DNA of 28,575 bases, from assembly GCA_964509445.1 (NCBI GenBank), contig CAZDYS010000003.1, positions 1-28,575 on the forward strand, written 5' to 3'. The stretch comes from an uncultured Planctomycetaceae bacterium (GTDB lineage: Bacteria > Planctomycetota > UBA1135 > GCA-002686595). Below the pieces are notes generated by a model. The model was not told where the DNA came from, did not search any database, and saw only the letters and a program-made list of their open reading frames with translations. Of the stretch, positions 7,551 to 21,010 are shown one piece after another (within the stretch, counting starts at the first letter, position 1; each line of letters begins with the position of its first letter). A program made the position numbers and the translations under genes.

Positions 7551-7902
7551 CGGCGACCACCGGGAGAAGCCGCTGCGCACGCTCGCCGCCGAGCTCGAGA
7601 ACGCGCTGTGCGTCCTCGAGGGAGACGGCTCGGAGGGGCAGGGGGTGAACCCCGCTCCGATCCAGCGTGCCTTCGACGAGCTGCGGGCCATCAACGACCG
7701 GCTCGCCGACCGGCGCATGGAGCCGGAGCTGCGCGCTCTGTTCGATCGGGTGCGCCGGCTGCACACGGTGCTGCTCGCGACCGCCTCCTCGGCGCGCGAG
7801 ACCGTCGGGAGCGAGCTCACGCGCGCCCTGCAGGCGCGCAAGGCCTTGGCGGGCCACGGAGCGGAGCCGAACACCGGCGGCCGCTGCGACGTCTCCGGCT
7901 GA
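7547..7902 (+). CDS. FliT-like helical protein, apparently broken by a 1-bp deletion near its start
   Basis: GTG at 7547 overlaps the fliS TGA. The protein-like frame (DHREKPLRTLAAELENALCVLEG...RAFDELRAINDRL...LQARKALAGHG...GGRCDVSG) is offset by one base and has no start of its own before GTG 7645. It sits where fliT normally does. Confidence 0.55.
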
Positions 7903-7980
7903 CTGTCGCAAAATACAACACTCCGCGCGTCCCGCCGCGGAGACTGGGTGTTGCAATGTTCGACATCGGGAAGGGAAGGG

Positions 7981-8008
7981 CAAAGCCTCGGGCCTGAGGT
8001 GTCGAAGG
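7981..8008 (+). promoter_or_regulatory. Weak sigma-28-like promoter upstream of fliO
   Basis: CAAAG-N15-GTCGAAGG; nearly the same as the TCAAG-N15-GTCGAAAG element at 2170-2197. Confidence 0.3.
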
Positions 8009-8060
8009 TCAGGACGCCGCGGAGGACCGGATGGTCCGCGTCCCCGCGCGCCTCCTCCCC

Positions 8061-8627
8061 ATGCCGATCGACCCCGTCCTCGCGTTCTTGACGCCCGAGG
8101 AGACCGCTGCCGCCGCCGCCGGTCCCGATCTCACGCGCTACGTCCTCGTGTGCCTGGGGATCCTCGCGCTCGTGCTCGGGCTCGCCTGGGCCTTCCGCCG
8201 GTTCGTGGCGGACAGCGTCCGGCGCCACGCGGCGAAGCGCTCGCTCCAGGTGACGGACGTCCTCCCGCTCGGAGGTCGCCGCCGTCTGCTCGTCGTGCGG
8301 TGCTTCGACCGCAACTTCTTGATCGGGCTCGGCGAGAAGGAGATCACGAACATCGCGGAGCTCGAGAAGGACGAGGCGGTCCAGGCGGCTCCCAAAGCCG
8401 CGCCGGCCCCCTCGGAGGAACGCTCCCAGGAGACGGCGCCCGCGCCGCGTCCGGAGACCGTCCCTCCGACCCCGAGTCGCGAGAAGGTCCAGCCGCTGCC
8501 CCCCGGCGTGAAGCCGTTCCCGGTCTCGCTCGCGGAAGAGCTGCGTGCGTCGCAGCCGGGACCGACGGGGCGCCGCAGACGCCGCACCGTGGAGCGCTGG
8601 AAGCGCGGGGAGGGGATCGTCGGATGA
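8061..8627 (+). CDS. fliO: Flagellar biosynthesis protein FliO with a Pro-rich C-terminal extension
   Basis: One TM helix (YVLVCLGILALVLGLAWAFRRF), then LQVTDVLPLGGRRRLLVVRCFDRNFLIG; immediately before fliP. Confidence 0.8.
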   Translation: MPIDPVLAFLTPEETAAAAAGPDLTRYVLVCLGILALVLGLAWAFRRFVADSVRRHAAKRSLQVTDVLPLGGRRRLLVVRCFDRNFLIGLGEKEITNIAELEKDEAVQAAPKAAPAPSEERSQETAPAPRPETVPPTPSREKVQPLPPGVKPFPVSLAEELRASQPGPTGRRRRRTVERWKRGEGIVG

Positions 8628-9403
8628 ACACCTTCCTCCGCATCGCCCTGGTCCTTGTCGCTCTCCTCGGGGTGACGACGCCTGCGTTCTCGCAGAGCAC
8701 TCCCGCACCGGGAGTCGCGCCGGTCGTCGACCAGGACGTGACGGGTGAGGACGGGCTGCAGATGAGCGAGGCCGTCGAGGTCGCGGTCGTCCTGACGGTC
8801 CTGTCGCTCGTCCCGGCCATCCTGATCTCGCTCACGAGCTTCACGCGAATCGTGATCGTGCTCTCGTTCGTGCGCCGATCCCTCGCCGTCCAGGAGCTAC
8901 CGCCCAACCCGATCCTCATCGGACTGTCGCTGTTCCTGACGACCTTCGTGATGGGGCCGGTGTTCAGCGACGTCTACGAGGACGCCTACAAGCCCTACAA
9001 GGACGGCCAGATCGCGATGGCCGACGCGGGGGACGCGGCCTGGGGCACGCTGCGCGGCTTCCTCCTGGACAACACGCGCGAGGAGGAGCTCGACCTGTTC
9101 CTCGAGCTCGCGGACCTCGAAGGAGACGTGGAAGGCGCGATCCTGCCGCGCGAGGAACTGCCGCTGCGCGTCGTCGTGCCCGCGTTCGTCCTCAGCGAGC
9201 TGAAGACCGCGTTCCAGATGGGCTTCCTGCTCTTCCTGCCGTTCCTCGTGATCGACCTCGTGATCGCCTCGGTGCTGATCTCGATGGGCATGTTCATGCT
9301 GCCGCCGGTGATGATCTCGACGCCGTTCAAGATCCTCCTGTTCGTGCTGGTCGACGGCTGGCGGCTGGTCTGCGAGTCCCTCGTCACCTCCTTCGTGATC
9401 TGA
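8624..9403 (+). CDS. fliP: Flagellar export gate protein FliP, 259 aa
   Basis: ATGA overlap with fliO; signal peptide; LTSFTRIVIVLS, PPN, VPAFVLSELKTAFQMGF, PPVMISTPFKILLFVLVDGW. Confidence 0.97.
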   Translation: MNTFLRIALVLVALLGVTTPAFSQSTPAPGVAPVVDQDVTGEDGLQMSEAVEVAVVLTVLSLVPAILISLTSFTRIVIVLSFVRRSLAVQELPPNPILIGLSLFLTTFVMGPVFSDVYEDAYKPYKDGQIAMADAGDAAWGTLRGFLLDNTREEELDLFLELADLEGDVEGAILPREELPLRVVVPAFVLSELKTAFQMGFLLFLPFLVIDLVIASVLISMGMFMLPPVMISTPFKILLFVLVDGWRLVCESLVTSFVI

Positions 9404-9678
9404 TGGACCTCGACCTGCGCGTCATCGATCTCTTCCGGGAGATGCTCTTCACGGTCCTCCTGCTCGCGGGGCCCGTCCTCGCGGTCGGGTTGATCGTCGG
9501 CGTGGCGGTCAGCTTGTTCCAGGCGCTCACCTCCGTGCAGGAGCAGACGCTCTCGCTGGTCCCGAAGATGCTCGCGGTCGTCGTCGTCGCGCTGCTCCTG
9601 CTCGCCCCGGCCCTGTCCATCCTGCGCGACTTCTTCCTTCGCATCCTCGGACAGCTCAACGAGTTCGGGTTGGCCTGA
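9403..9678 (+). CDS. fliQ: Flagellar export gate protein FliQ
   Basis: GLIVGVAVSLFQALTSVQEQTLSLVPK; TGATG overlap with fliP. Confidence 0.95.
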   Translation: MDLDLRVIDLFREMLFTVLLLAGPVLAVGLIVGVAVSLFQALTSVQEQTLSLVPKMLAVVVVALLLLAPALSILRDFFLRILGQLNEFGLA

Positions 9679-10457: not shown

Positions 10458-11570
10458 GTGGCCGATCAAGCGGAGAAGGAACAGAAGACCGAGGAGGCGA
10501 CTCCGAAGAAGCGCGACGAGGCCCGCGAGAAGGGGCAGGTCGCGATGTCGACGGAGTTCATCGCCGCGATCGGGCTGGCCGTCGGCCTGGCCTCCCTCAT
10601 GCTCGGGGGAGGCGCGTTGATGCGGGCCATCGGGGAGAACGCGGTGGACGTGGTGACCGTGATGGGGGAGATCGGCACCAGCGACCTGACGGTCCCCGAG
10701 GCCGCGGTGATCCTGGAGGAGTCGACCTTCTCGGCGACGGGCCTCCTGCTCGCGGTCACGCTGCCGCCGATCCTGATCAGCGCGCTGGCCGGCTTCCTGC
10801 AGGTCGGGTTCCGCATCGCGCCCAAGGCGCTCGAGCTGGACTTCAACAAGGTCAACCCGGTCTCCGGCTGGTCCAAGTTCCTCAGCATGCGGTCCGCCGT
10901 CCGGACCGGCATGGCGGCGACCAAGGTCGTCCTGATCACGGTGGTCGTCGTCTGGATCGCGCTCCTGCACCTGGAGCAGCTCACGCGCGTCGGCATCAAC
11001 GAGCTCGGTCCGATGCTGGCCGCGGTCGGCGTCGTGCTCTTCCGCTGCTGCCTGGGCGCCCTGGCCGTGGTGATCGCGCTCGCGATCGCCGACCTCCTCT
11101 ATCAGCGCTACCAGCACTCGGTGGACCTGCGCATGACCAAGAAGGAGGTTCGCGACGAGGCGAAGATGACCGAGGGGGACCCGCACGTGCGCGCACGCAT
11201 TCGCAGGATGCAGTCGGAGCTGGCGTCGCGCCGCATGATGGCGGACGTCCCGAAGGCCACCGTCGTCGTCACGAACCCGACGCACTACGCCGTCGCGCTT
11301 CGCTACGAGCGCGACGCGGACGACGCGGCGACTCCGCGGGCGCCGGTCGTGCTCGCGAAGGGCATCGACTCGCTGGCGCAGAGGATCAAGGCCGTGGCGC
11401 GCGAGCACGGCGTCGTCTGCTACGAGGACGTCCCGCTCGCGCGCGCGCTGCACGCGCAGTGCGAGGTGGGCGACGAGATCCCCGAGGACCTGTACGCGGC
11501 CGTCGCCGCGGTCCTGGGCTACGTGTACCGCATGCGCGGTCGGGTTCCGGAGATGGCGGCGAGCGCCTAG
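10458..11570 (+). CDS. flhB: Flagellar export switch protein FlhB
   Basis: KTEEATPKKRDEAREKGQV, MTKKEVRDEAKMTEGDPHV, autocleavage motif VVTNPTHYAVAL, PLARAL. Confidence 0.97.
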   Translation: MADQAEKEQKTEEATPKKRDEAREKGQVAMSTEFIAAIGLAVGLASLMLGGGALMRAIGENAVDVVTVMGEIGTSDLTVPEAAVILEESTFSATGLLLAVTLPPILISALAGFLQVGFRIAPKALELDFNKVNPVSGWSKFLSMRSAVRTGMAATKVVLITVVVVWIALLHLEQLTRVGINELGPMLAAVGVVLFRCCLGALAVVIALAIADLLYQRYQHSVDLRMTKKEVRDEAKMTEGDPHVRARIRRMQSELASRRMMADVPKATVVVTNPTHYAVALRYERDADDAATPRAPVVLAKGIDSLAQRIKAVAREHGVVCYEDVPLARALHAQCEVGDEIPEDLYAAVAAVLGYVYRMRGRVPEMAASA

Positions 11571-11580
11571 GGGCTGAACC

Positions 11581-13686
11581 ATGTCGAACACCGGAAACGT
11601 CGAACGCGTCGGGAACTGGCTGTCCCGCTACTCCGACTGGGTGATGGGCCTGGGCGTGATCGGGCTGATGATCACGCTGCTGATGCCCCTGCCCCCGGGG
11701 GTGCTCGACCTGCTCTTGGCGCTGAACGTGACGAGCTCTCTGATGCTGCTGCTCGTCTCGATGAACGTGCGCGCCTCCTCGGAGCTGTCGACGTTCCCGA
11801 CGATCCTCCTGTTCGCCACCCTGTTCCGGCTGGGGCTGAACGTGGCGAGCACGCGCCTGATCCTCAGCCAGGGTCGCGCCGGCACGATCATCTCGTCCTT
11901 CGGCGGCTACGTCGCGGGGGACAACCTGACCGTCGGCCTGGTCGTCTTCCTGATCCTGATCATCATCCAGTTCGTCGTCATCACGAAGGGCGCTGGACGG
12001 ATCTCCGAGGTCGCCGCCCGTTTCGTGCTCGACGCGATGCCCGGCAAGCAGATGGCGATCGACGCCGACCTGAACGCGGGGCTGATCGACTCCGAGGAGG
12101 CGCGCAAGCGGCGCACCGGCGTCGCGACCGAGGCCGAGTTCTACGGTGCGATGGACGGTGCCTCCAAGTTCGTGCGCGGAGACGCCGTGGCGGGCCTGAT
12201 CATCACGGCGCTCAACCTGCTCGGCGGCATCGCGATCGGCTCGCTCAGCGGCATCTCGGTCGGTGAGGCGGGTCAGAAGTACGCGATGCTCACGATCGGC
12301 GACGGTCTGGTGACGCAGATCCCCGCGCTGCTCGTGTCGACCTCGGCGGCGCTGCTCGTCACGAAGGCGACCAGCGACCGCAGCCTGGGCTTCAGCTTGA
12401 TGGCGCAGGTCGGAAGCCAGCCGCGGGCGACGCTGATCGCCGCCGGCATGATGTTCACGATCGGCCTCTTGCCGGGCATGCCGAGCCTGCCGTTCACGAT
12501 CCTCGCGACGCTGCTGCTCCTGACCTGGCGCTCGACCCGCGGGATGAACGGATCGGAGGAGCTGCTGGCCCCCGAGGCCGAGTCCGCGGACGGCGGGACG
12601 ACGCCGGCGGAGGGCGAGGCGTCGACGGAGCAGGAGGCGGCCAACGAGACCCTCGAGCTCCTCAACGTCGACCGCGTCTCGCTGGAGATCGGCTACCGCC
12701 TGATCCCGCTGGTGCAGGACAGCTCCGGCACGGGCATCCTCGACCACGTCTCGCAGATCCGCAAACGGTTCGCGGGCAGCGAGGGCGTCGTCCTTCCCCC
12801 GGTGCGCATCAAGGACAACATCCGCATGGAGCCGGGTGCCTACCGCGTCCTGATCGGAGGGCAAGAGCTCGCGCGCGGCACGATCGAGCCGGGGAGCTTC
12901 CTCGCCATGGACGGCGGCGTCGCGACCGGGAAGATCCGCGGCAAGGAGACGACCGACCCCGCGTTCGGTCTGCCCGCCTGGTGGATCGGGGCGGGGCAAC
13001 GCGACGAGGCGGAGCTCCTGGGCTACACGGTCATCGACCCGACCAGCGTGCTCGTGACGCACCTCACGGAAGTGCTGCGGACGTCGCTGCCCGACATCCT
13101 CACCCGGGACGACGTGAAGGAGCTGGTCGAGAACGCCCGCAAGACGGCGCCGGCCGTCGTGGAAGAGCTCCTGCCGGAGAAGTTCACCTACGGTGAGGTC
13201 CAGCAGGTGCTGGCCAACCTCCTGCGGGACGGCGTTCCGGTGCGGAATATGCCGGCGATCCTGGAGTCGCTCGCGGACAACGTCGCCAAGTCGCGCGACG
13301 TCGAGACCCTGAGCGAGCTCGTGCGCCAGCGGCTGGGCCGCACCCTGTGCGAGCTCGTCGCCGACAAGAGCGGCACCGTCCATGCGATCACGCTCGAGCC
13401 CACGGTCGAGGCGCGTCTCGCGGCGGCCGTCGGCGTCGGTCAGGACACCGACGCCCAGCCGGTGAATCCCGTCTATCTCCAACGTCTCGTCGAGCGAATC
13501 GGCGAGGCGATCACGACCGCCTCGAAGAGCGGCAAGGACGCCGTCCTGCTCGCTCGCTCGAACGTGCGTCGGTTCCTGAGCGAGCTCGTGCGAGCCTCGC
13601 TGCCCAAGGTCTCCGTTCTCTCCTACAACGAGGTCGTTCCGGCCCGTGCGGTGGAGACGACGGCGATCGTGACGATGGAGGACTGA
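11581..13686 (+). CDS. flhA: Flagellar export apparatus protein FlhA
   Basis: LFRLGLNVASTRLIL, RISEVAARFVLDAMPGKQMAIDADL, FYGAMDGASKFVRGD, IGDGLVTQIPALL, VLSYNEV. Confidence 0.98.
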   Translation: MSNTGNVERVGNWLSRYSDWVMGLGVIGLMITLLMPLPPGVLDLLLALNVTSSLMLLLVSMNVRASSELSTFPTILLFATLFRLGLNVASTRLILSQGRAGTIISSFGGYVAGDNLTVGLVVFLILIIIQFVVITKGAGRISEVAARFVLDAMPGKQMAIDADLNAGLIDSEEARKRRTGVATEAEFYGAMDGASKFVRGDAVAGLIITALNLLGGIAIGSLSGISVGEAGQKYAMLTIGDGLVTQIPALLVSTSAALLVTKATSDRSLGFSLMAQVGSQPRATLIAAGMMFTIGLLPGMPSLPFTILATLLLLTWRSTRGMNGSEELLAPEAESADGGTTPAEGEASTEQEAANETLELLNVDRVSLEIGYRLIPLVQDSSGTGILDHVSQIRKRFAGSEGVVLPPVRIKDNIRMEPGAYRVLIGGQELARGTIEPGSFLAMDGGVATGKIRGKETTDPAFGLPAWWIGAGQRDEAELLGYTVIDPTSVLVTHLTEVLRTSLPDILTRDDVKELVENARKTAPAVVEELLPEKFTYGEVQQVLANLLRDGVPVRNMPAILESLADNVAKSRDVETLSELVRQRLGRTLCELVADKSGTVHAITLEPTVEARLAAAVGVGQDTDAQPVNPVYLQRLVERIGEAITTASKSGKDAVLLARSNVRRFLSELVRASLPKVSVLSYNEVVPARAVETTAIVTMED

Positions 13687-14596: not shown

Positions 14597-15435
14597 CCGC
14601 GACGCTCGAACAAGCGGTCGACGGACCGCCGTTCCTCCTGGTGACCGGTGGCAAGGGCGGGGTCGGAAAGACGACGCTCGCCGCGAACCTCGGCCTGCAG
14701 CTCGCTGGTCTCGGTGCCGCCCCGCTCGTGTGCGACCTCGACTTCGGGCTCGCGAACCTCGACGTGATGCTGGGGCTGGAGCCGCCGCGGACGGTCGAGG
14801 ACTTCCTCGATGGCTACGCCGAGCTCGGCGACTGCATCACACACTCCCCGTTCGAGCTCGACGTGCTCGCGGCGGGTTCCGGCTCGGTCGAGCGAAGCCG
14901 TCCGGATCCGAAGCGCCGGCAGCGCCTGTGCGACGCGCTCGCGCGGACCTCGGCCGGTCTGGTGCTCGGAGACAGTCCCGCCGGGATCGGCGACGACGTC
15001 GTCGAGTTCGCCGTGCGTGCGGATCGCGTCCTGGTGGTCACGACGCCCGAGCCCGCGGCCGTCACGGATGCCTACGGAGTCATCAAGGCCATCGACGGTC
15101 ACGCCGCCGCGCGTGGTCGCGAGGTCCCGACTCCCGAGATCTTCGTGAACCTGGCGACGGACGCCGGCGAGGCGCGCTCGATCGCGACCAAGCTGGCCGG
15201 CGTCTGCGAGCGCTTCCTGGCTCGCGTCCCGCGTCTCGCGGGGTGGATGCCGCGCTCCTCCGAGGTCCTGCAGGGCGTCCTCACCCAGACGCCCTTCGTG
15301 CGACGCAGCCCCGACTCCGCGGCGGCCAAGAGCCTCGCGCGTTTGGCCCGTCGTTACGCCGAATTCGCGCTGCCTTCCGGTCTGCGGTCCGCCTCGAAAC
15401 CGACGTCTAAGGCTTCTGATGAGCTCGGTCGATAA
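14593..15435 (+). CDS. flhG: FlhG/FleN MinD-like ATPase, 280 aa
   Basis: GTG start overlaps the flhF TGA; VTGGKGGVGKTT, DLDFGLANLDVMLG, VTTPEPAAVTDAYGVIK. Confidence 0.9.
   Translation: MTATLEQAVDGPPFLLVTGGKGGVGKTTLAANLGLQLAGLGAAPLVCDLDFGLANLDVMLGLEPPRTVEDFLDGYAELGDCITHSPFELDVLAAGSGSVERSRPDPKRRQRLCDALARTSAGLVLGDSPAGIGDDVVEFAVRADRVLVVTTPEPAAVTDAYGVIKAIDGHAAARGREVPTPEIFVNLATDAGEARSIATKLAGVCERFLARVPRLAGWMPRSSEVLQGVLTQTPFVRRSPDSAAAKSLARLARRYAEFALPSGLRSASKPTSKASDELGR
15407..15435 (+). promoter_or_regulatory. Sigma-28 promoter embedded in the 3' end of flhG, upstream of fliA
   Basis: CTAAG-N16-GTCGATAA: same -35 and spacing as the fliD promoter, one mismatch in the -10. Confidence 0.65.
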
Positions 15436-15676
15436 AGCCGCTGGCGAGGCCCACCTCTCCGACGCTTGGCGCGCCCTCGGGCACCGCATCGCGGTGGCCG
15501 GAGCCTGCGCCGTGGCGCTCTTCTCGCTCTTTCTCCACGTGCCACCGACGACCGCCGCCTTGCGAGGCGCGGGGACCTGGCTCGCGCTCCTGTTCGCGAC
15601 GCGGCTGGGTGTGCTCGCTCTCCGTCAAGCGCTGCGGCTCGAGCATCCGGTGAGCGACGCGAAGGAAGACTCCTGA
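15419..15676 (+). CDS. Small membrane protein (about 2 TM helices) between flhG and fliA
   Basis: 85 aa with hydrophobic stretches RIAVAGACAVALFSLFLHV and GAGTWLALLFATRLGVLAL. Confidence 0.68.
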   Translation: MSSVDKAAGEAHLSDAWRALGHRIAVAGACAVALFSLFLHVPPTTAALRGAGTWLALLFATRLGVLALRQALRLEHPVSDAKEDS

Positions 15677-15707: not shown

Positions 15708-16439
15708 TTGAGCCGCGAGCCCGAGTACGCTCCGGTCGACGCAGCCGTCGATCGCGACGCGCTGATCCTCGATCACGTGCCGCTGTTGCACCACATCGTG
15801 GGGCGCATGGGGTGGGACGTTCCCGGTCGCATCGACCGGGACGACCTCCTGGGCTGGGGCATGCTCGGCCTGATCGCGGCCGCCGACGCGTGGGATCCCT
15901 CGCGCGGGCTGAAGTTCTCGACCTTCGCCTACCCGCGGATCAAGGGCTCGATCCTCGACGAGCTGCGGCGCAACGACTTCCTGCCGCGCGGTCGGCGCGA
16001 GAAGCTGCGCGAGCTCGAGAACGTCGTGCGCGACCTCGAGCAGGAGAACGGGCTCCCGCCCACTCCGGAGGAGATCGCGAAGGCGCTCGGCGTCGACCAC
16101 GAGGAGGTGGATCAGATCATGCACTCGGCGCGCGTCGCGGGCAGCGTGTCCCTCGAGGACGGGCCGTCGGAGACGCTCGCGCAGATGCTCAGCGACCCGA
16201 GCAGCCAGGACCCGGTCGGGACGGCCGAGTACTCCGAGCTGAAGGGGCTCTTGGTCCAGACCATCTCGAAGCTGCCCCAGCAGGAGCAGGCCGTCATCAC
16301 GCTGTACTACGGCGAAGAGCTGCTCTTGAAGGAGATCGGCGAGGTCCTGGGAGTCACCGAGTCGCGCGTCTCCCAGATCCACAGCCGCGCGATCTACCGG
16401 CTCAACCGTGAGCTCGTCTCCCTGACCGGAACCCTGTGA
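15708..16439 (+). CDS. fliA: Flagellar sigma factor sigma-28 (FliA/WhiG family)
   Basis: DDLLGWGMLGLIAAADAWDPSRGLKFSTFAYPRIKGSILDELRRND, ITLYYGEELLLKEIGEVLGVTESRVSQIH. Confidence 0.95.
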   Translation: MSREPEYAPVDAAVDRDALILDHVPLLHHIVGRMGWDVPGRIDRDDLLGWGMLGLIAAADAWDPSRGLKFSTFAYPRIKGSILDELRRNDFLPRGRREKLRELENVVRDLEQENGLPPTPEEIAKALGVDHEEVDQIMHSARVAGSVSLEDGPSETLAQMLSDPSSQDPVGTAEYSELKGLLVQTISKLPQQEQAVITLYYGEELLLKEIGEVLGVTESRVSQIHSRAIYRLNRELVSLTGTL

Positions 16440-16450
16440 GGAACACGACC

Positions 16451-16669
16451 ATGGACGTCCGTCACGTCGAACCCACGATCCGCGAGAACACGCTCCGCCG
16501 CTCCCGGCGCCGTCGCTCCGACGGCCAGCAGGCGAACGACTTCGCCGAGCAGTTCGGTCGGCACACGACCGGCTCCTCCGCGGAGGCAAACGAGGCGCCG
16601 GACGACACGGCGCCGGCTCCCCCCTCCCAGGAGGCCGGTCTCGGCGACCGGATCGACGTCACCGCATGA
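16451..16669 (+). CDS. Small hypothetical protein ending in GDRIDVTA
   Basis: ATG at 16451 preceded by GAGGA (alternative GTG at 16436 overlaps the fliA stop); ATGA coupling to the next gene. Confidence 0.63.
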   Translation: MDVRHVEPTIRENTLRRSRRRRSDGQQANDFAEQFGRHTTGSSAEANEAPDDTAPAPPSQEAGLGDRIDVTA

Positions 16670-16887
16670 AGAGCGTCATCAAGAAGACCCTCGTCCGCCA
16701 GGAGGCGGCCGGCGCGGTCCGCACCCAACACGAAGGCGTGTCCCTCGCCCAGGACCTCGAGCGTGCTCCGCAGCCCGGAGTACGCGTGGTTCGCCTGGAG
16801 GGCCGCGTCACCGCTCTCGAAGTCACCTGCAAGTGCGGCGAGGTCGCGGTCGTGGAACTCGACTACGACGCTCCGCCGAGCGCCTGA
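16666..16887 (+). CDS. Small hypothetical protein with a CxC motif, 73 aa
   Basis: ATGA-coupled; C-terminal beta-rich segment VRVVRLEGRVTALEVTCKCGEVAVVELDY. Confidence 0.7.
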   Translation: MKSVIKKTLVRQEAAGAVRTQHEGVSLAQDLERAPQPGVRVVRLEGRVTALEVTCKCGEVAVVELDYDAPPSA

Positions 16888-16898
16888 ACCTACGAACG

Positions 16899-17546
16899 AT
16901 GAAGAGACTCCTCTTGCTCTCCGCCCTGGCGCTGGCCGGCCTTTCCGCCTGTCAGATGCCGCTGGCCTTCCAGGATCCGATGGCCGTTCCCCAGTCCGGG
17001 GGCTGGCAACCGCAGGGACGTTTCCGCAACCCGGGGGCGCCAGCCAGTCAGCCGACCGTGCATCAGAACGCGTACCCGGCCTCCAGCGGTGCGCAGGGCG
17101 CGCCGCTCCTCGGTTGGGACGGTGGCGTCGTGGACGGCCCGCGGCAGGGAGAGGTCGTCTCCGTGTCCGGCGCCGGAACGCACGCGATGGAGGAGTCCGT
17201 CGACGGGCGCATGCACATCATCGAGCTCTACCAGTCGGTGCTCGACGAGCGAGACCAGCTCCAGAGCGAGGTCGCGGCGCTCCAGGCGGCGCTCGAGACG
17301 AGCCAGGCGGAGCTCGGCGCGCAGCGCGAGGACGGCCTGACCCAGGGCACGCGCATCGAGGCGCTCGAGCAGGCGAAGAGCACGCTCATGCAGGAGAACA
17401 AGGACCTCGCCGGTCGGCTGGCGAAGGCGCAGCTGCGCAGGCTCGAGGCGGAGAAGCTCCTGCTCGAGACGCAGATCGCCTGGCACCGCAGCCAGGGCGC
17501 CGCTCCCGAGGCCCGCTCCGTCGCGAACCCGGAGCAACCCCGATGA
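16899..17546 (+). CDS. Lipoprotein with a long C-terminal coiled coil, 215 aa
   Basis: MKRLLLLSALALAGLSA-C lipobox; heptad-rich IIELYQSVLDERDQLQSEVAALQAALE...LEAEKLLLE. Confidence 0.8.
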   Translation: MKRLLLLSALALAGLSACQMPLAFQDPMAVPQSGGWQPQGRFRNPGAPASQPTVHQNAYPASSGAQGAPLLGWDGGVVDGPRQGEVVSVSGAGTHAMEESVDGRMHIIELYQSVLDERDQLQSEVAALQAALETSQAELGAQREDGLTQGTRIEALEQAKSTLMQENKDLAGRLAKAQLRRLEAEKLLLETQIAWHRSQGAAPEARSVANPEQPR

Positions 17547-18154
17547 ACCTCCGCCTGGTCCTCCTCGCAGGCATCGCGCCGCTGCTCGGCTCCTGCCTCG
17601 CGAACTACGTCCCCCCGATGCCGCTCCTGGCGACGGCGGAGGTCTCGAACGACTTCGACACCTACGCCATCGAGCGCGTCGGGCTGCTCCCGTTCTCCGG
17701 GAAGGAGCTGGCGACCACCGAGGCGCAGGAGCTGCAGGCCTCGTTCCTGTCGGAGGTCGCGCGCGCGACGCCTTACGAGGTCATCTGCCTCGACGCGGAC
17801 GACCTGGAGATGGTGGAGGCCGGCGACCCGCACCGCACCGGGTCCTACAGCCCGCGCACGATCATCGAGCTCTCGCGTCGCTACAACCTCGACGCGATCC
17901 TGTTCGGTTCCGTCACGGACGAGCGGTTCTTCCCGCCGCAGCTGTTGAGCCTGACGCTCGACCTGGTGTCCGCCGAGACCGGACTCGTGGTGTGGTCCTC
18001 GTCCGTCCACCTGGACGCGCGGGACGAGCGCGTGCAGGACGGCCTGCGCGCCTACTACCACGTCGACGACCGCGAGAAGGCCTGGCAGATCGCGCTCCTG
18101 TCGCCCGAGCGCTTCGCGCGCTTCGCGGCGTTCCAGATCGCTCTGCTCCTCTGA
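17543..18154 (+). CDS. Lipoprotein with a CsgG/TolB-N/FlgO-like alpha/beta fold, 203 aa
   Basis: MNLRLVLLAGIAPLLGS-C lipobox; RVGLLPF, LSRRYNLDAILFGSV and LTLDLVSAETGLVVWSSS are typical of this fold family; ATGA-coupled. Confidence 0.78.
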   Translation: MNLRLVLLAGIAPLLGSCLANYVPPMPLLATAEVSNDFDTYAIERVGLLPFSGKELATTEAQELQASFLSEVARATPYEVICLDADDLEMVEAGDPHRTGSYSPRTIIELSRRYNLDAILFGSVTDERFFPPQLLSLTLDLVSAETGLVVWSSSVHLDARDERVQDGLRAYYHVDDREKAWQIALLSPERFARFAAFQIALLL

Positions 18155-18193: not shown

Positions 18194-18526
18194 TCAACCG
18201 CGGAGCAGGCCTTCGGCGGCGCGCTCGAGGCGCTCCTGCGTGCCGAGCTCGCCCGCGATGTAGGCGGCTCGCAGCGCATCGACGCGGTCCTGACGCTCGG
18301 CGTCCTGGGCCGTGGAGTCGACAGCGGCGCTCGACAGCTCGATCCGGTCGCCGCGCGGCTCCTGGGAGCGTGCGGCCTGCGCCTCGCGTGCGGCCTTGCG
18401 AACCTCTTCGAGGCCCTCGAGGTCGGCACGCGCATCCTCCACGCGCTCACGGACCGGCTGCCTGTCGGCGTCGAGGCGGCCTCGACCCGGCTTCAGCGGT
18501 TCGGGTTGTCTTCCGTGGACTTCCAT
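18194..18526 (-). CDS. flgM: Anti-sigma-28 factor FlgM-like protein, 110 aa
   Basis: ATG at 18526 with AAGGAG SD; DRIELSSAA and RQDRVDALRAAYIAGEL match the FlgM D-x-V-E-I-S and R-x-x-K-V-x-x-L-K-x-x-I-x-x-G patterns; preceded by a perfect GCCGATAA. Confidence 0.75.
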   Translation of the reverse strand: MEVHGRQPEPLKPGRGRLDADRQPVRERVEDARADLEGLEEVRKAAREAQAARSQEPRGDRIELSSAAVDSTAQDAERQDRVDALRAAYIAGELGTQERLERAAEGLLRG

Positions 18527-18571
18527 GAGAGGCTCCTTTTCCAAGAGGATGGGAAAGGTTTCCTGCCTCCG

Positions 18572-18599
18572 TTATCGGCACCCGCGGACTCCGCGTGAG
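18572..18599 (-). promoter_or_regulatory. Sigma-28 promoter for flgM
   Basis: Minus strand CTCAC-N15-GCCGATAA, about 45 nt upstream of the start. Confidence 0.8.
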
Positions 18600-18668: not shown

Positions 18669-21010
18669 ATGAACTTCTGGTGCTCTGGCAGGGGGCGCTC
18701 GGAGGTCCCGGGAACCGCACCCAGGGCGGGCACCGGGGCTCGGGCACGTCTCCTGGCGGTCGGGCTGGCGGCGCTCCTCGGGACGGGCGTCGCCGAGGCG
18801 CGCCAGGGGGACACCGCGAGCTCGCGCACGGACTACCGCATCCAGGCGCGGCTCGAGGGCGAGGCGAAGACCCTGAGCGGCTCGCTCGAGGTGGACTGGA
18901 CCAACGGCAGCGCCGACGCGGTCGAGGAGCTGTGGTTCCACCTCTACCTGAACGCGTTCTCGAACAACCGCTCGACCCACCTGGTCGAGGGCAAGGGGCG
19001 CTACCGCGGAGCCGTGAAGGCCGAGGACGGCTGGGGCTGGCAGCGCGTGACGTCCATCGAGCTCCTCCAGGACGCGGGACCGGCCGACCTGTTCGGCAGT
19101 CTTCGCTTCCAGCGTCCCGACGACGGGCGGGAGGACGACCGCACGGTCTTCAGCGTCGACCTGCCGCAGCCGGTGCCACCCGGAGAGACGATCACCGTGC
19201 GCGTCGCCTGGGAGTCCCAGCTCCCGCGCGTCCGTCGGCGCACCGGCTACAAGGGCGACTTCCTGCTCGTCGCGCAGTGGTTCCCGAAGCTCGGGGTGTA
19301 CGAGACCGGGCGCGGCTGGAACGCGCACCAGTTCCACGCCAACAGCGAGTGGTACGCCGACTTCGGGACCTACGACGTGCAGCTCGACCTCCCCAGCGAG
19401 TACGAGGGCAAGGTCTTCGGCTCCGGCGTGCGCGTCACCGACGACTGGGAGGACGGCCGTCGGAAGATCCGCTTCCAGGCGCCGAGCGAGCTCGACCGTC
19501 AGCGACAGGACGCGTTCGGGAAGCTGCCGCTCGTGCACGACTTCACGTGGACCGCCGACCCGGACTTCGTGGTCGAGAACCACATCTTCCGGTTCAGCGA
19601 GTGGGCCGAACGCTTCCCCGAGGAGGTGGAGAAGGCCCGCGCCGCCTTCGGCGAGGACGTCGACCTCGCGCTGCGCAACGTGGACGTGACCGTGCTGGTC
19701 CAGCCCGAACACGCGGGTCAGGTCGGGCGGCACATCGAGGCGACCTGCGCCGCGCTGTTCTTCTACGGGCTGTGGTTCGGGGAGTACCCCTACCAGCACA
19801 TCACGGTCATCGATCCCGCCTGGGGAGGCGGCGCCGCCGGCGGGATGGAGTATCCGACGCTGTTCACCTGCGGCACGCGGCTGTTCACGACGCCCGACAT
19901 GCACCGCCCGGAGAGCGTTACCGTGCACGAGTGCGGCCACCAGTTCTGGTACGGGCTCGTCGGCAACAACGAGTTCGAGTCCGCCTGGCTCGACGAGGGG
20001 CTGAACTCCTACACCGACTCCGAGGTGCTGTGGCGGGTGTTCGGGGCGAAGCGGGAGACCACCGACTACGGCGTGCTGCCGATCGACGGTCGGCGCGTCG
20101 GTGGAGTGCCCGGCGGGGGACCGGTCAGCGGACTGCTGGTCGGGGAGAGCCTCGAGATCCCTTCCTCGATCCCATCGAGCTGACCCCGCTGCCCGAGTCG
20201 GGCTTCCTCGACCTCTGGCGCGACCAGCCCGCGTTCACCTTCGCGCCCACGACGACCGACCCCCGCTGGCACGACCGCACGCGCTACCTGTCCGATCCGG
20301 ACACGGACCCGATCGAGACCTTCTCCTGGGAGTACGCGGATCGCGGCAGCTACGTGGTGAACAGCTATCCGCGCACGGCCGTCGCGCTGCGCTCGCTCGA
20401 GCCGGTCATCGGTCGCGACGCGTTCCTGCGCGGCATGCGGCACTTCGCGGAGGAGTGGCGCTATCGCCACCCCTACCCGCAGGACTTCTACGCGACCTTC
20501 CAGCGCGGCGCGGAGGTCGAGATCGACTGGTACTTCCGCGAGGTGTTCCAGGGCACCGGGACCGTCGACTGGAGCGTCTCCGTCTCCCAGCGGCGGCGCC
20601 CGAAGCCCATCGGCTACTTCCAGAGCGAGGGCGGGGAGTTCTTCGAGGAGAAGCACGACGGCTCCTCCGAGGACGAGGCCCCCTGGGAGATCGAGGTCGA
20701 GCTGCGTCGCGCCGGCACGCTGCGCCTGCCCGTCACCGTCCGGCTGACCTTCGAGGACGGGACGACCGAGGACGTGCTCTGGTCGCGCGAGGAGCAGGAG
20801 GGCACGACCTGGACGCGTCTCGAGCGCAGCGGAGCGAACAAGCTCGTGTCCGCGGTCGTCGACCCGCAGCGCTCCTACTTCCTCGACACCGACATGTCGA
20901 ACAACCGCTGGGTGGCGGCCACGGAGGGTCTGACCCCGTGGCGCTGGGGGGAGCGCGTGCTGTCCCAGTACCAGCGCTTCTTCCACTGGATCGGAGGTCT
21001 CGGCGGATGA
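18669..21010 (+). CDS. Secreted M1-family (gluzincin) aminopeptidase, about 780 aa once a 1-bp indel at 20159-20161 is corrected
   Basis: Signal-like N-terminus; QWFPKLGVY, GGMEYP, HECGHQFWYGLVGNNE, WLDEGLNSY. The frame stops at 20183 but continues in the -1 frame (FLDPIELTPLP...YVVNSYPRTAVAL...WRYRHPYPQDF...VDP...DTDMSNN). Confidence 0.9.

Follow-up and report, generated by a model that had tools for sequence, protein, structure and literature searches.

In a 28,575-nt stretch of DNA from an uncultured Planctomycetaceae bacterium (GenBank assembly GCA_964509445.1, contig CAZDYS010000003.1, positions 1 to 28,575 of the forward strand; hereafter the window), the sigma-28 gene fliA is followed by four tightly spaced genes, here called o1 to o4. 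We propose that these genes form a lineage-specific accessory flagellar module which extends the fliA operon, and that the two lipoproteins o3 and o4 make an outer-membrane ring or scaffold; this is, on balance, the reading we consider probable. The association of the module with flagella is strong, and we hold it with high confidence.

This association is seen in the distribution of o4. The 41 related genomes compared span 10 families of the order; 30 of them have o4, and these are exactly the 30 that carry FlhA, FlgH and FlgI, while the other 11 lack all three. The absences fall in several families, including three genera of the window's own family, a pattern which suggests several separate losses. 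In a sample of 301 genomes of the phylum, in which o4 was counted only as a strong, full-length match, both o4 and FlhA are found in 72 genomes, o4 only in 3, FlhA only in 99 and neither in 127, so that FlhA accompanies a strong o4 in 72 of 75 cases. Since about 99 FlhA-positive planctomycete genomes do not have the module, we describe it as lineage-specific. The three o4-positive genomes without an FlhA match all belong to a single family (f40, about 43% guanine plus cytosine, GC), and the two of them that were inspected both have o3-o4 beside fliK-flgD. In another family (f20), o4 occurs in 14 of 17 genomes, the same 14 that have FlhA, and no flagellar genes were seen among the o4 neighbours in the one locus annotated.

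Gene order points the same way. The arrangement flhA-flhF-flhG-(two-transmembrane-helix (2TM) gene)-fliA-o1-o2-o3-o4 is kept in 20 of 20 related loci from six families of the order, with o1 not found in two of them. Eight further families of the phylum have flhB-flhA-fliA-o2-(o3)-o4, often without flhF/flhG or o1, and o2 directly follows fliA in at least 14 families. Away from fliA, o3-o4 lie in f40 upstream of a 551-aa gene followed by fliK and flgD, and in another family between a PilZ gene and fliM/motB. A coiled-coil lipoprotein gene stands directly upstream of every o4 homologue examined. The original prediction had described the four genes as a candidate lineage-specific flagellar accessory set and proposed a co-occurrence check; that check came out clearly positive, both in the 41 relatives and across the phylum, and the proposal is supported. 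The homologues are neither mostly from non-flagellated genomes nor unlinked to flagellar genes, with 72 of 75 in FlhA-positive genomes and positions beside fliA/flhA, fliK/flgD or fliM/motB.

The 551-aa gene between o4 and fliK in f40 (positions 7935-9587, plus strand, of locus L033, genome G071) is another uncharacterised candidate flagellar gene, with no match in Pfam.

The four genes are real genes and not chance open reading frames (ORFs), as indicated by codon-position GC and conservation for o1 to o3 and by conservation for o4. GC at third codon positions (GC3) is 0.84-0.88, versus 0.46-0.56 at second positions, in the ORF frames containing o1, o2 and o3. The four keep their order and length in 18 to 20 of the 20 related loci, and gene calling recovered each of them on an independent metagenome contig, where the nine genes stand in the same order. 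The o1 start codon is preceded by GAGGAA; a GTG at 16436, overlapping the fliA stop, is an alternative start which we consider unlikely because the relatives begin at the equivalent of the ATG, with MDxSIxRI. The anatomy given in the original prediction, namely fliA followed by a 72-aa ORF, a 73-aa CxC ORF and two lipoprotein ORFs linked by ATGA overlaps or gaps of about 11 nt, was found as described (Table 1). Its statement that none of the four matches a core flagellar gene also holds, as none of them reaches threshold in the Pfam or NCBIfam scans.

Table 1 Positions of the module, its promoter-like site and other features of the window, with the basis for each.
Feature	Positions	Strand	Basis or remark
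flhB (reading)	10458-11570	+	Position and matches in related loci
flhA (reading)	11581-13686	+	Position and matches in related loci
85-aa ORF between fliS and fliO	7645-7902	+	Coding-like GC3 of 0.93
Sigma-28-type promoter-like site, TAAG-N16-GTCGATAA	15408-15435	+	Within the final codons of flhG, ahead of the 2TM gene and fliA
85-aa 2TM protein, FlgV-like	15419-15676	+	Context gene outside the four; kept in relatives
fliA (sigma-28)	15708-16439	+	TIGR02479 FliA_WhiG, E 1.8e-68, above cut-off; Pfam Sigma70 r2, r3, r4
o1, 72 aa	16451-16669	+	ATG at 16451, 11 nt past the fliA stop
o2, 73 aa, C-x-C	16666-16887	+	ATGA overlap with o1 at 16666-16669
o3, 215 aa, lipobox LSAC	16899-17546	+	ATG at 16899, 11 nt past the o2 stop
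o4, 203 aa, lipobox LGSC	17543-18154	+	ATGA overlap with o3 at 17543-17546
Probable flgM, 116 aa, bounds the unit	18194-18544	-	Pfam FlgM PF04316, E 0.0032, 18.1 bits
Large ORF downstream of flgM	18680-21010	+	HExxH...E motif

The o4 protein carries its lipobox after a hydrophobic leader, and the lipobox cysteine, Cys18, does not vary in either of two sets, of 31 and of 20 sequences. Residues R45, D117, G147 and W151 are invariant as well. The predicted fold of o4 is an alpha/beta fold of the type of PelC and the middle domain of FlgT, which are the nearest solved folds, with a conserved hydrophobic C-terminal helix. The alpha/beta fold is shared with the FlgO/LpoB/CsgG superfold, and o4 is matched, with E values of roughly 1e-8 to 1e-9, by AlphaFold clusters that bear the name 'FlgO domain-containing'; a Pfam search gave no match to FlgO (PF17680) or CsgG. 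A0A518ELT0, the representative of an AlphaFold cluster, shares 42% identity with o4. The earlier description of o4 as CsgG/FlgO-like thus stands at the level of the superfold and not below it, where PelC and the FlgT middle domain are nearer.

A protein search with o4 using a broader alignment returned only names from Planctomycetes or Phycisphaerales. We also observed that Atlas clusters resembling o4 by shape (template modelling score 0.77) and o2 by language-model features are labelled mostly Verrucomicrobiota. The module may extend across the Planctomycetes-Verrucomicrobia-Chlamydiae (PVC) group.

The alignment of o3 shows a lipobox, a variable low-complexity linker, a short conserved LY-x-RDG-x-x-V motif and a C-terminal coiled coil which includes the conserved stretch LAxRLTTAQIRRLEAEKLLLE. 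Searches with o3 in Pfam, by PDB profile and in the Atlas matched only generic coiled coils, including Lpp. Neither o3 nor o4 has an aspartate at position +2. Under the sorting rule of E. coli, lipoproteins without Asp at +2 go to the outer membrane, and both proteins are therefore predicted by this rule to be outer-membrane lipoproteins. A replacement of the L and P rings by o3-o4 was considered and rejected, since the genomes concerned also have FlgH and FlgI.

We compared o4 with known ring-forming proteins. PelC, the outer-membrane lipoprotein ring of the Pel exporter (PDB 5T10, 5T0Z, 9H80), has a lipobox and the alpha/beta fold in common with o4, but sequence or profile similarity to PelC/GNA1162-like proteins is not detectable in Pfam, where the only match is a weak one to LpoB, or in the PDB-sequence profile search. 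Unlike PelC, o4 is never found beside pel genes, lacks a PelB partner and any part in polysaccharide export, and is always in, or tracking, flagellar loci. FlgT of the Vibrio H-ring (PDB 3W1E, 8Z5N) is a non-lipoprotein of about 377 aa with three domains (N, M and C), whereas o4 has just one domain, which is lipidated. Pfam finds no FlgT domain in o4, and the lineages differ, FlgT being from Gammaproteobacteria and o4 from Planctomycetota. For the lipoprotein pair as a whole, the likeness is to FlgO and FlgP, small outer-membrane lipoproteins which are encoded as a pair and build concentric flagellar rings. FlgP builds the basal disk of Campylobacter. In Vibrio, the H-ring combines FlgT with the outer-membrane lipoproteins FlgO and FlgP (bioRxiv 10.64898/2025.12.02.691832).

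The two small proteins are of a different kind, and neither has a signal peptide. In an alignment of 19 sequences, o1 has a conserved N-terminus, an invariant phenylalanine and a terminal motif G-x-x-(I/L/V)-D-(V/I/L)-x-(A/G); its Atlas model is disordered, with a predicted local distance difference test score (pLDDT) of 0.42. The PDB profile search gave no match for o1 and its Atlas matches, like those of o2, are unnamed clusters. The o2 protein consists of an N-terminal (V/I)IKKxxV motif, a linker that is disordered and a sheet of three strands with a CxCG turn, in which C55, C57 and G58 are invariant in the alignment. Its AlphaFold2 model places the strands at residues 38-64 with pLDDT above 89 and the CxCG between strands 2 and 3, and leaves the N-terminal half disordered. 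An exhaustive profile search groups the o2 family into 1810 clusters at 50% identity, and the 150 matches listed are all small proteins aligned over nearly their full length. The CxCG is kept in nine further families, many with a third cysteine in the next strand, and this turn could bind a metal.

Outside the window's family, most o2 homologues have a third cysteine in the last strand, in the sequence E-C-x-Y (loci L036-L044 and L025-L029). In the window's family this position is a leucine, which may point to a metal site varying from lineage to lineage. Likeness of o2 to the ribosomal protein bL31 was considered and dropped, as the PDB profile match at the CxCG, with an E of 0.22, is at the level of chance.

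Transcription of the module can be addressed through the sites around fliA. The pattern TAAG-N16-GTCGATAA occurs twice in the window, the second time before fliD, versus 0 times in 100 shuffles, and only three GNCGATAA elements are present: before fliD, before fliA (within the 15408-15435 site) and before flgM. With a relaxed pattern, 6 of 20 relatives show a similar motif at 300-400 nt before fliA. The stretch from fliA to o4 showed no site resembling a promoter or a terminator on the plus strand. Given the sigma-28-type site before fliA and the absence of such sites up to o4, co-transcription of o1 to o4 from an autoregulated, FliA-driven promoter of fliA is plausible from the sequence.

From these features we propose the following model. 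The o3 and o4 proteins would be exported, lipid-anchored and located at the outer membrane, where copies of o4 would assemble, on its inner face, into a ring or arc surrounding the L and P rings. The one domain of o4 folds like PelC, which forms rings, and like the middle domain of FlgT, which wraps the LP rings in Vibrio. The coiled coil of o3 would act as a strut or spacer attached to the o4 ring, giving an assembly like the H-ring of Vibrio or the basal disk of Campylobacter, by which the motor would be stabilised or helped through the outer membrane. The o1 and o2 proteins are tied to fliA; they are probably cytoplasmic and would act on sigma-28 or on the export apparatus. Fold analogy and lipoprotein pairing make it somewhat more credible than not that o3-o4 serve structurally, as a ring or scaffold. 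A further step is tentative, namely that a PelC-type ring was recruited as a new outer-membrane-proximal motor ring, with a coiled-coil strut, in many Planctomycetota and possibly in Verrucomicrobiota, with o2 as a metal-binding partner of sigma-28 or the export gate.

Extra periplasmic and outer-membrane rings account for much of the diversity of flagellar motors in torque and stability, and the well-characterised comparisons are those of Vibrio and Campylobacter. Our literature search found no study of motor structure in Planctomycetota and no paper describing the o1 to o4 families. The module offers four candidate motor parts for this phylum, all from unannotated families: two lipoproteins for which the fold predicts a ring, together with two small proteins linked to sigma-28. 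If the proposal is true, flagellar motors in a phylum far from Vibrio have taken up a lipoprotein ring fold of the PelC/FlgT type.

Other explanations have to be weighed against a stable ring or scaffold. The same flagellar linkage and fold evidence would apply if o3 and o4 were transient, pilotin-like or chaperone-like lipoproteins which aid the FlgH/FlgI ring, or the passage of rod and hook through the outer membrane, and then leave. The Vibrio H-ring is, in the words of one study's title, needed for outer-membrane penetration (bioRxiv 10.1101/358820), and in f40 the pair is upstream of the hook-stage genes fliK and flgD. However, genes in a fliA operon behind a sigma-28-type promoter would be expected to be expressed late, once the LP ring has formed, and the nearest folds, PelC and FlgT, are those of stable ring subunits; we therefore regard a transient role as rather improbable. 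The fold that o4 shares with LpoB would also suit a regulator of cell-wall enzymes, acting on local peptidoglycan synthesis or remodelling at the flagellar site while o3 spans the periplasm and positions it. In Pfam, the LpoB model (PF13036) scores o4 at 14.6 bits versus a cut-off of 22.3 bits, and we judge this role very unlikely. Finally, o1 to o4 could be general envelope or housekeeping genes hitch-hiking beside fliA, as none of the four has a flagellar family signature and the one annotated f20 locus has no flagellar neighbours around o4. Their presence and absence nevertheless track flagellar genes over several apparently separate losses, in f20 as well, and the flagellar linkage is kept in three different arrangements, which makes hitch-hiking highly improbable.

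A further alternative concerns only the small proteins. The o1 and o2 genes could encode a FliA regulatory pair, for example as an extra anti-sigma or anti-anti-sigma step or as an exported checkpoint protein with its partner, which is unrelated to o3-o4 and merely shares the operon. In agreement with this, o2 follows fliA across families while o3-o4 occur without o2 beside fliK/flgD and fliM/motB, and o1 is disordered like FlgM, with conserved termini, neither protein having a signal peptide. Against it, the Pfam, NCBIfam and PDB profile searches show no similarity to FlgM or to a known sigma-factor regulator, and a separate probable flgM is present. We consider such a pair rather unlikely; it is compatible with, and not opposed to, an o3-o4 ring or scaffold.

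Several observations weigh against the accessory-module proposal as a whole or in part. The sampled genomes are related and not independent, so the co-occurrence statistics overstate the support and carry no formal test. What o4 shares with PelC and FlgT is structure alone; sequence and profile searches matched it to no solved protein, and the same fold is found in LpoB and in the N-domain of TolB, which do not form rings. For o2 there is no fold match and no family match in Pfam, NCBIfam or PDB. Conservation of the promoter is partial, the strict sigma-28 pattern being present in 1 of 20 related loci and the relaxed one in 6 of 20, and the runs containing the window sequence are of DNA only (a biofilm metagenome), with no RNA run found. 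An hhalign comparison of o1 with the motility family YjfB aligns the last 10 C-terminal columns only (probability 6%, P 0.006). Lastly, no o2 was detected in four genomes that carry o3-o4 away from fliA, which means that the four genes may be two separate units. The module therefore splits into a part bound to fliA (o2, with o1 in some lineages) and the lipoprotein pair o3-o4.

A published gene context bears on the comparison of o1 with YjfB: a sigma-28 sub-module contains FapA, YjfB and a protein with transmembrane and helix-turn-helix segments (PMC11607428). Like YjfB_motility (PF14070), o1 is small, and both end in G-x-G-x-x-(I/V/L)-D-(V/L/F)-x-(A/G), as seen in 8 YjfB matches from Planctomycetota and 19 o1 sequences; the N-terminal part differs. 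At an E of 10, the PF14070 model matches 0 of the 19 o1 sequences and nothing in the window's genome. Canonical YjfB_motility is above cut-off in 7 of the 301 Planctomycetota genomes and, unlike o1, its genes (L050-L057) have neither fliA nor a module gene within 1.5 kb. Membership of o1 in YjfB was thus rejected, as Pfam gives no match and hhalign covers the terminal motif only; we keep the shared motif as a lead.

Beyond o4, the unit is bounded by an ORF on the opposite strand which converges on it and ends 39 nt past the o4 end. We assign it as a probable flgM because of a weak FlgM match together with a sigma-28-type -10 element: PF04316 falls short of its 25-bit cut-off and TIGR03824 gives an E of 0.079, both below cut-off, and a -10-like element, GCCGATAA, lies before the gene at 18572-18579 on the minus strand. 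Matches to this protein were also found beyond o4 in 2 of 20 related loci (L023, L032). For the convergent flgM of the original prediction, the convergent ORF is confirmed, while the FlgM match itself is weak.

The window comes from a metagenome-assembled genome (MAG) that is 72.8% complete in 916 contigs; its GC content is about 70%, and the nearest named proteins are from Planctomycetes/Planctomycetota MAGs. Its flagellar cluster on the plus strand runs through two flagellin genes, fliD, fliS, a small ORF, fliO, fliP, fliQ and fliR, and further along through the frames read as flhB and flhA, then flhF, a MinD-like flhG, the 85-aa 2TM gene and fliA. The small ORF between fliS and fliO has no Pfam match. 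The large ORF beyond flgM has a motif that we take to resemble that of M1-type metallopeptidases, and it is apparently not part of the flagellar unit.

In the alignment of relatives, the 2TM protein encoded between flhG and fliA has two hydrophobic helices, a conserved arginine inside the second and a polar tail. Type-1 FlgV sits between the flhF/flhG and sigma-28 sub-modules (PMC11607428), and the 85-aa protein fits this type in position, in its two predicted helices and in the arginine of helix 2. The ATG of the 2TM gene falls inside the spacer of the sigma-28-type promoter-like site, so a transcript from that promoter would skip the 2TM start.

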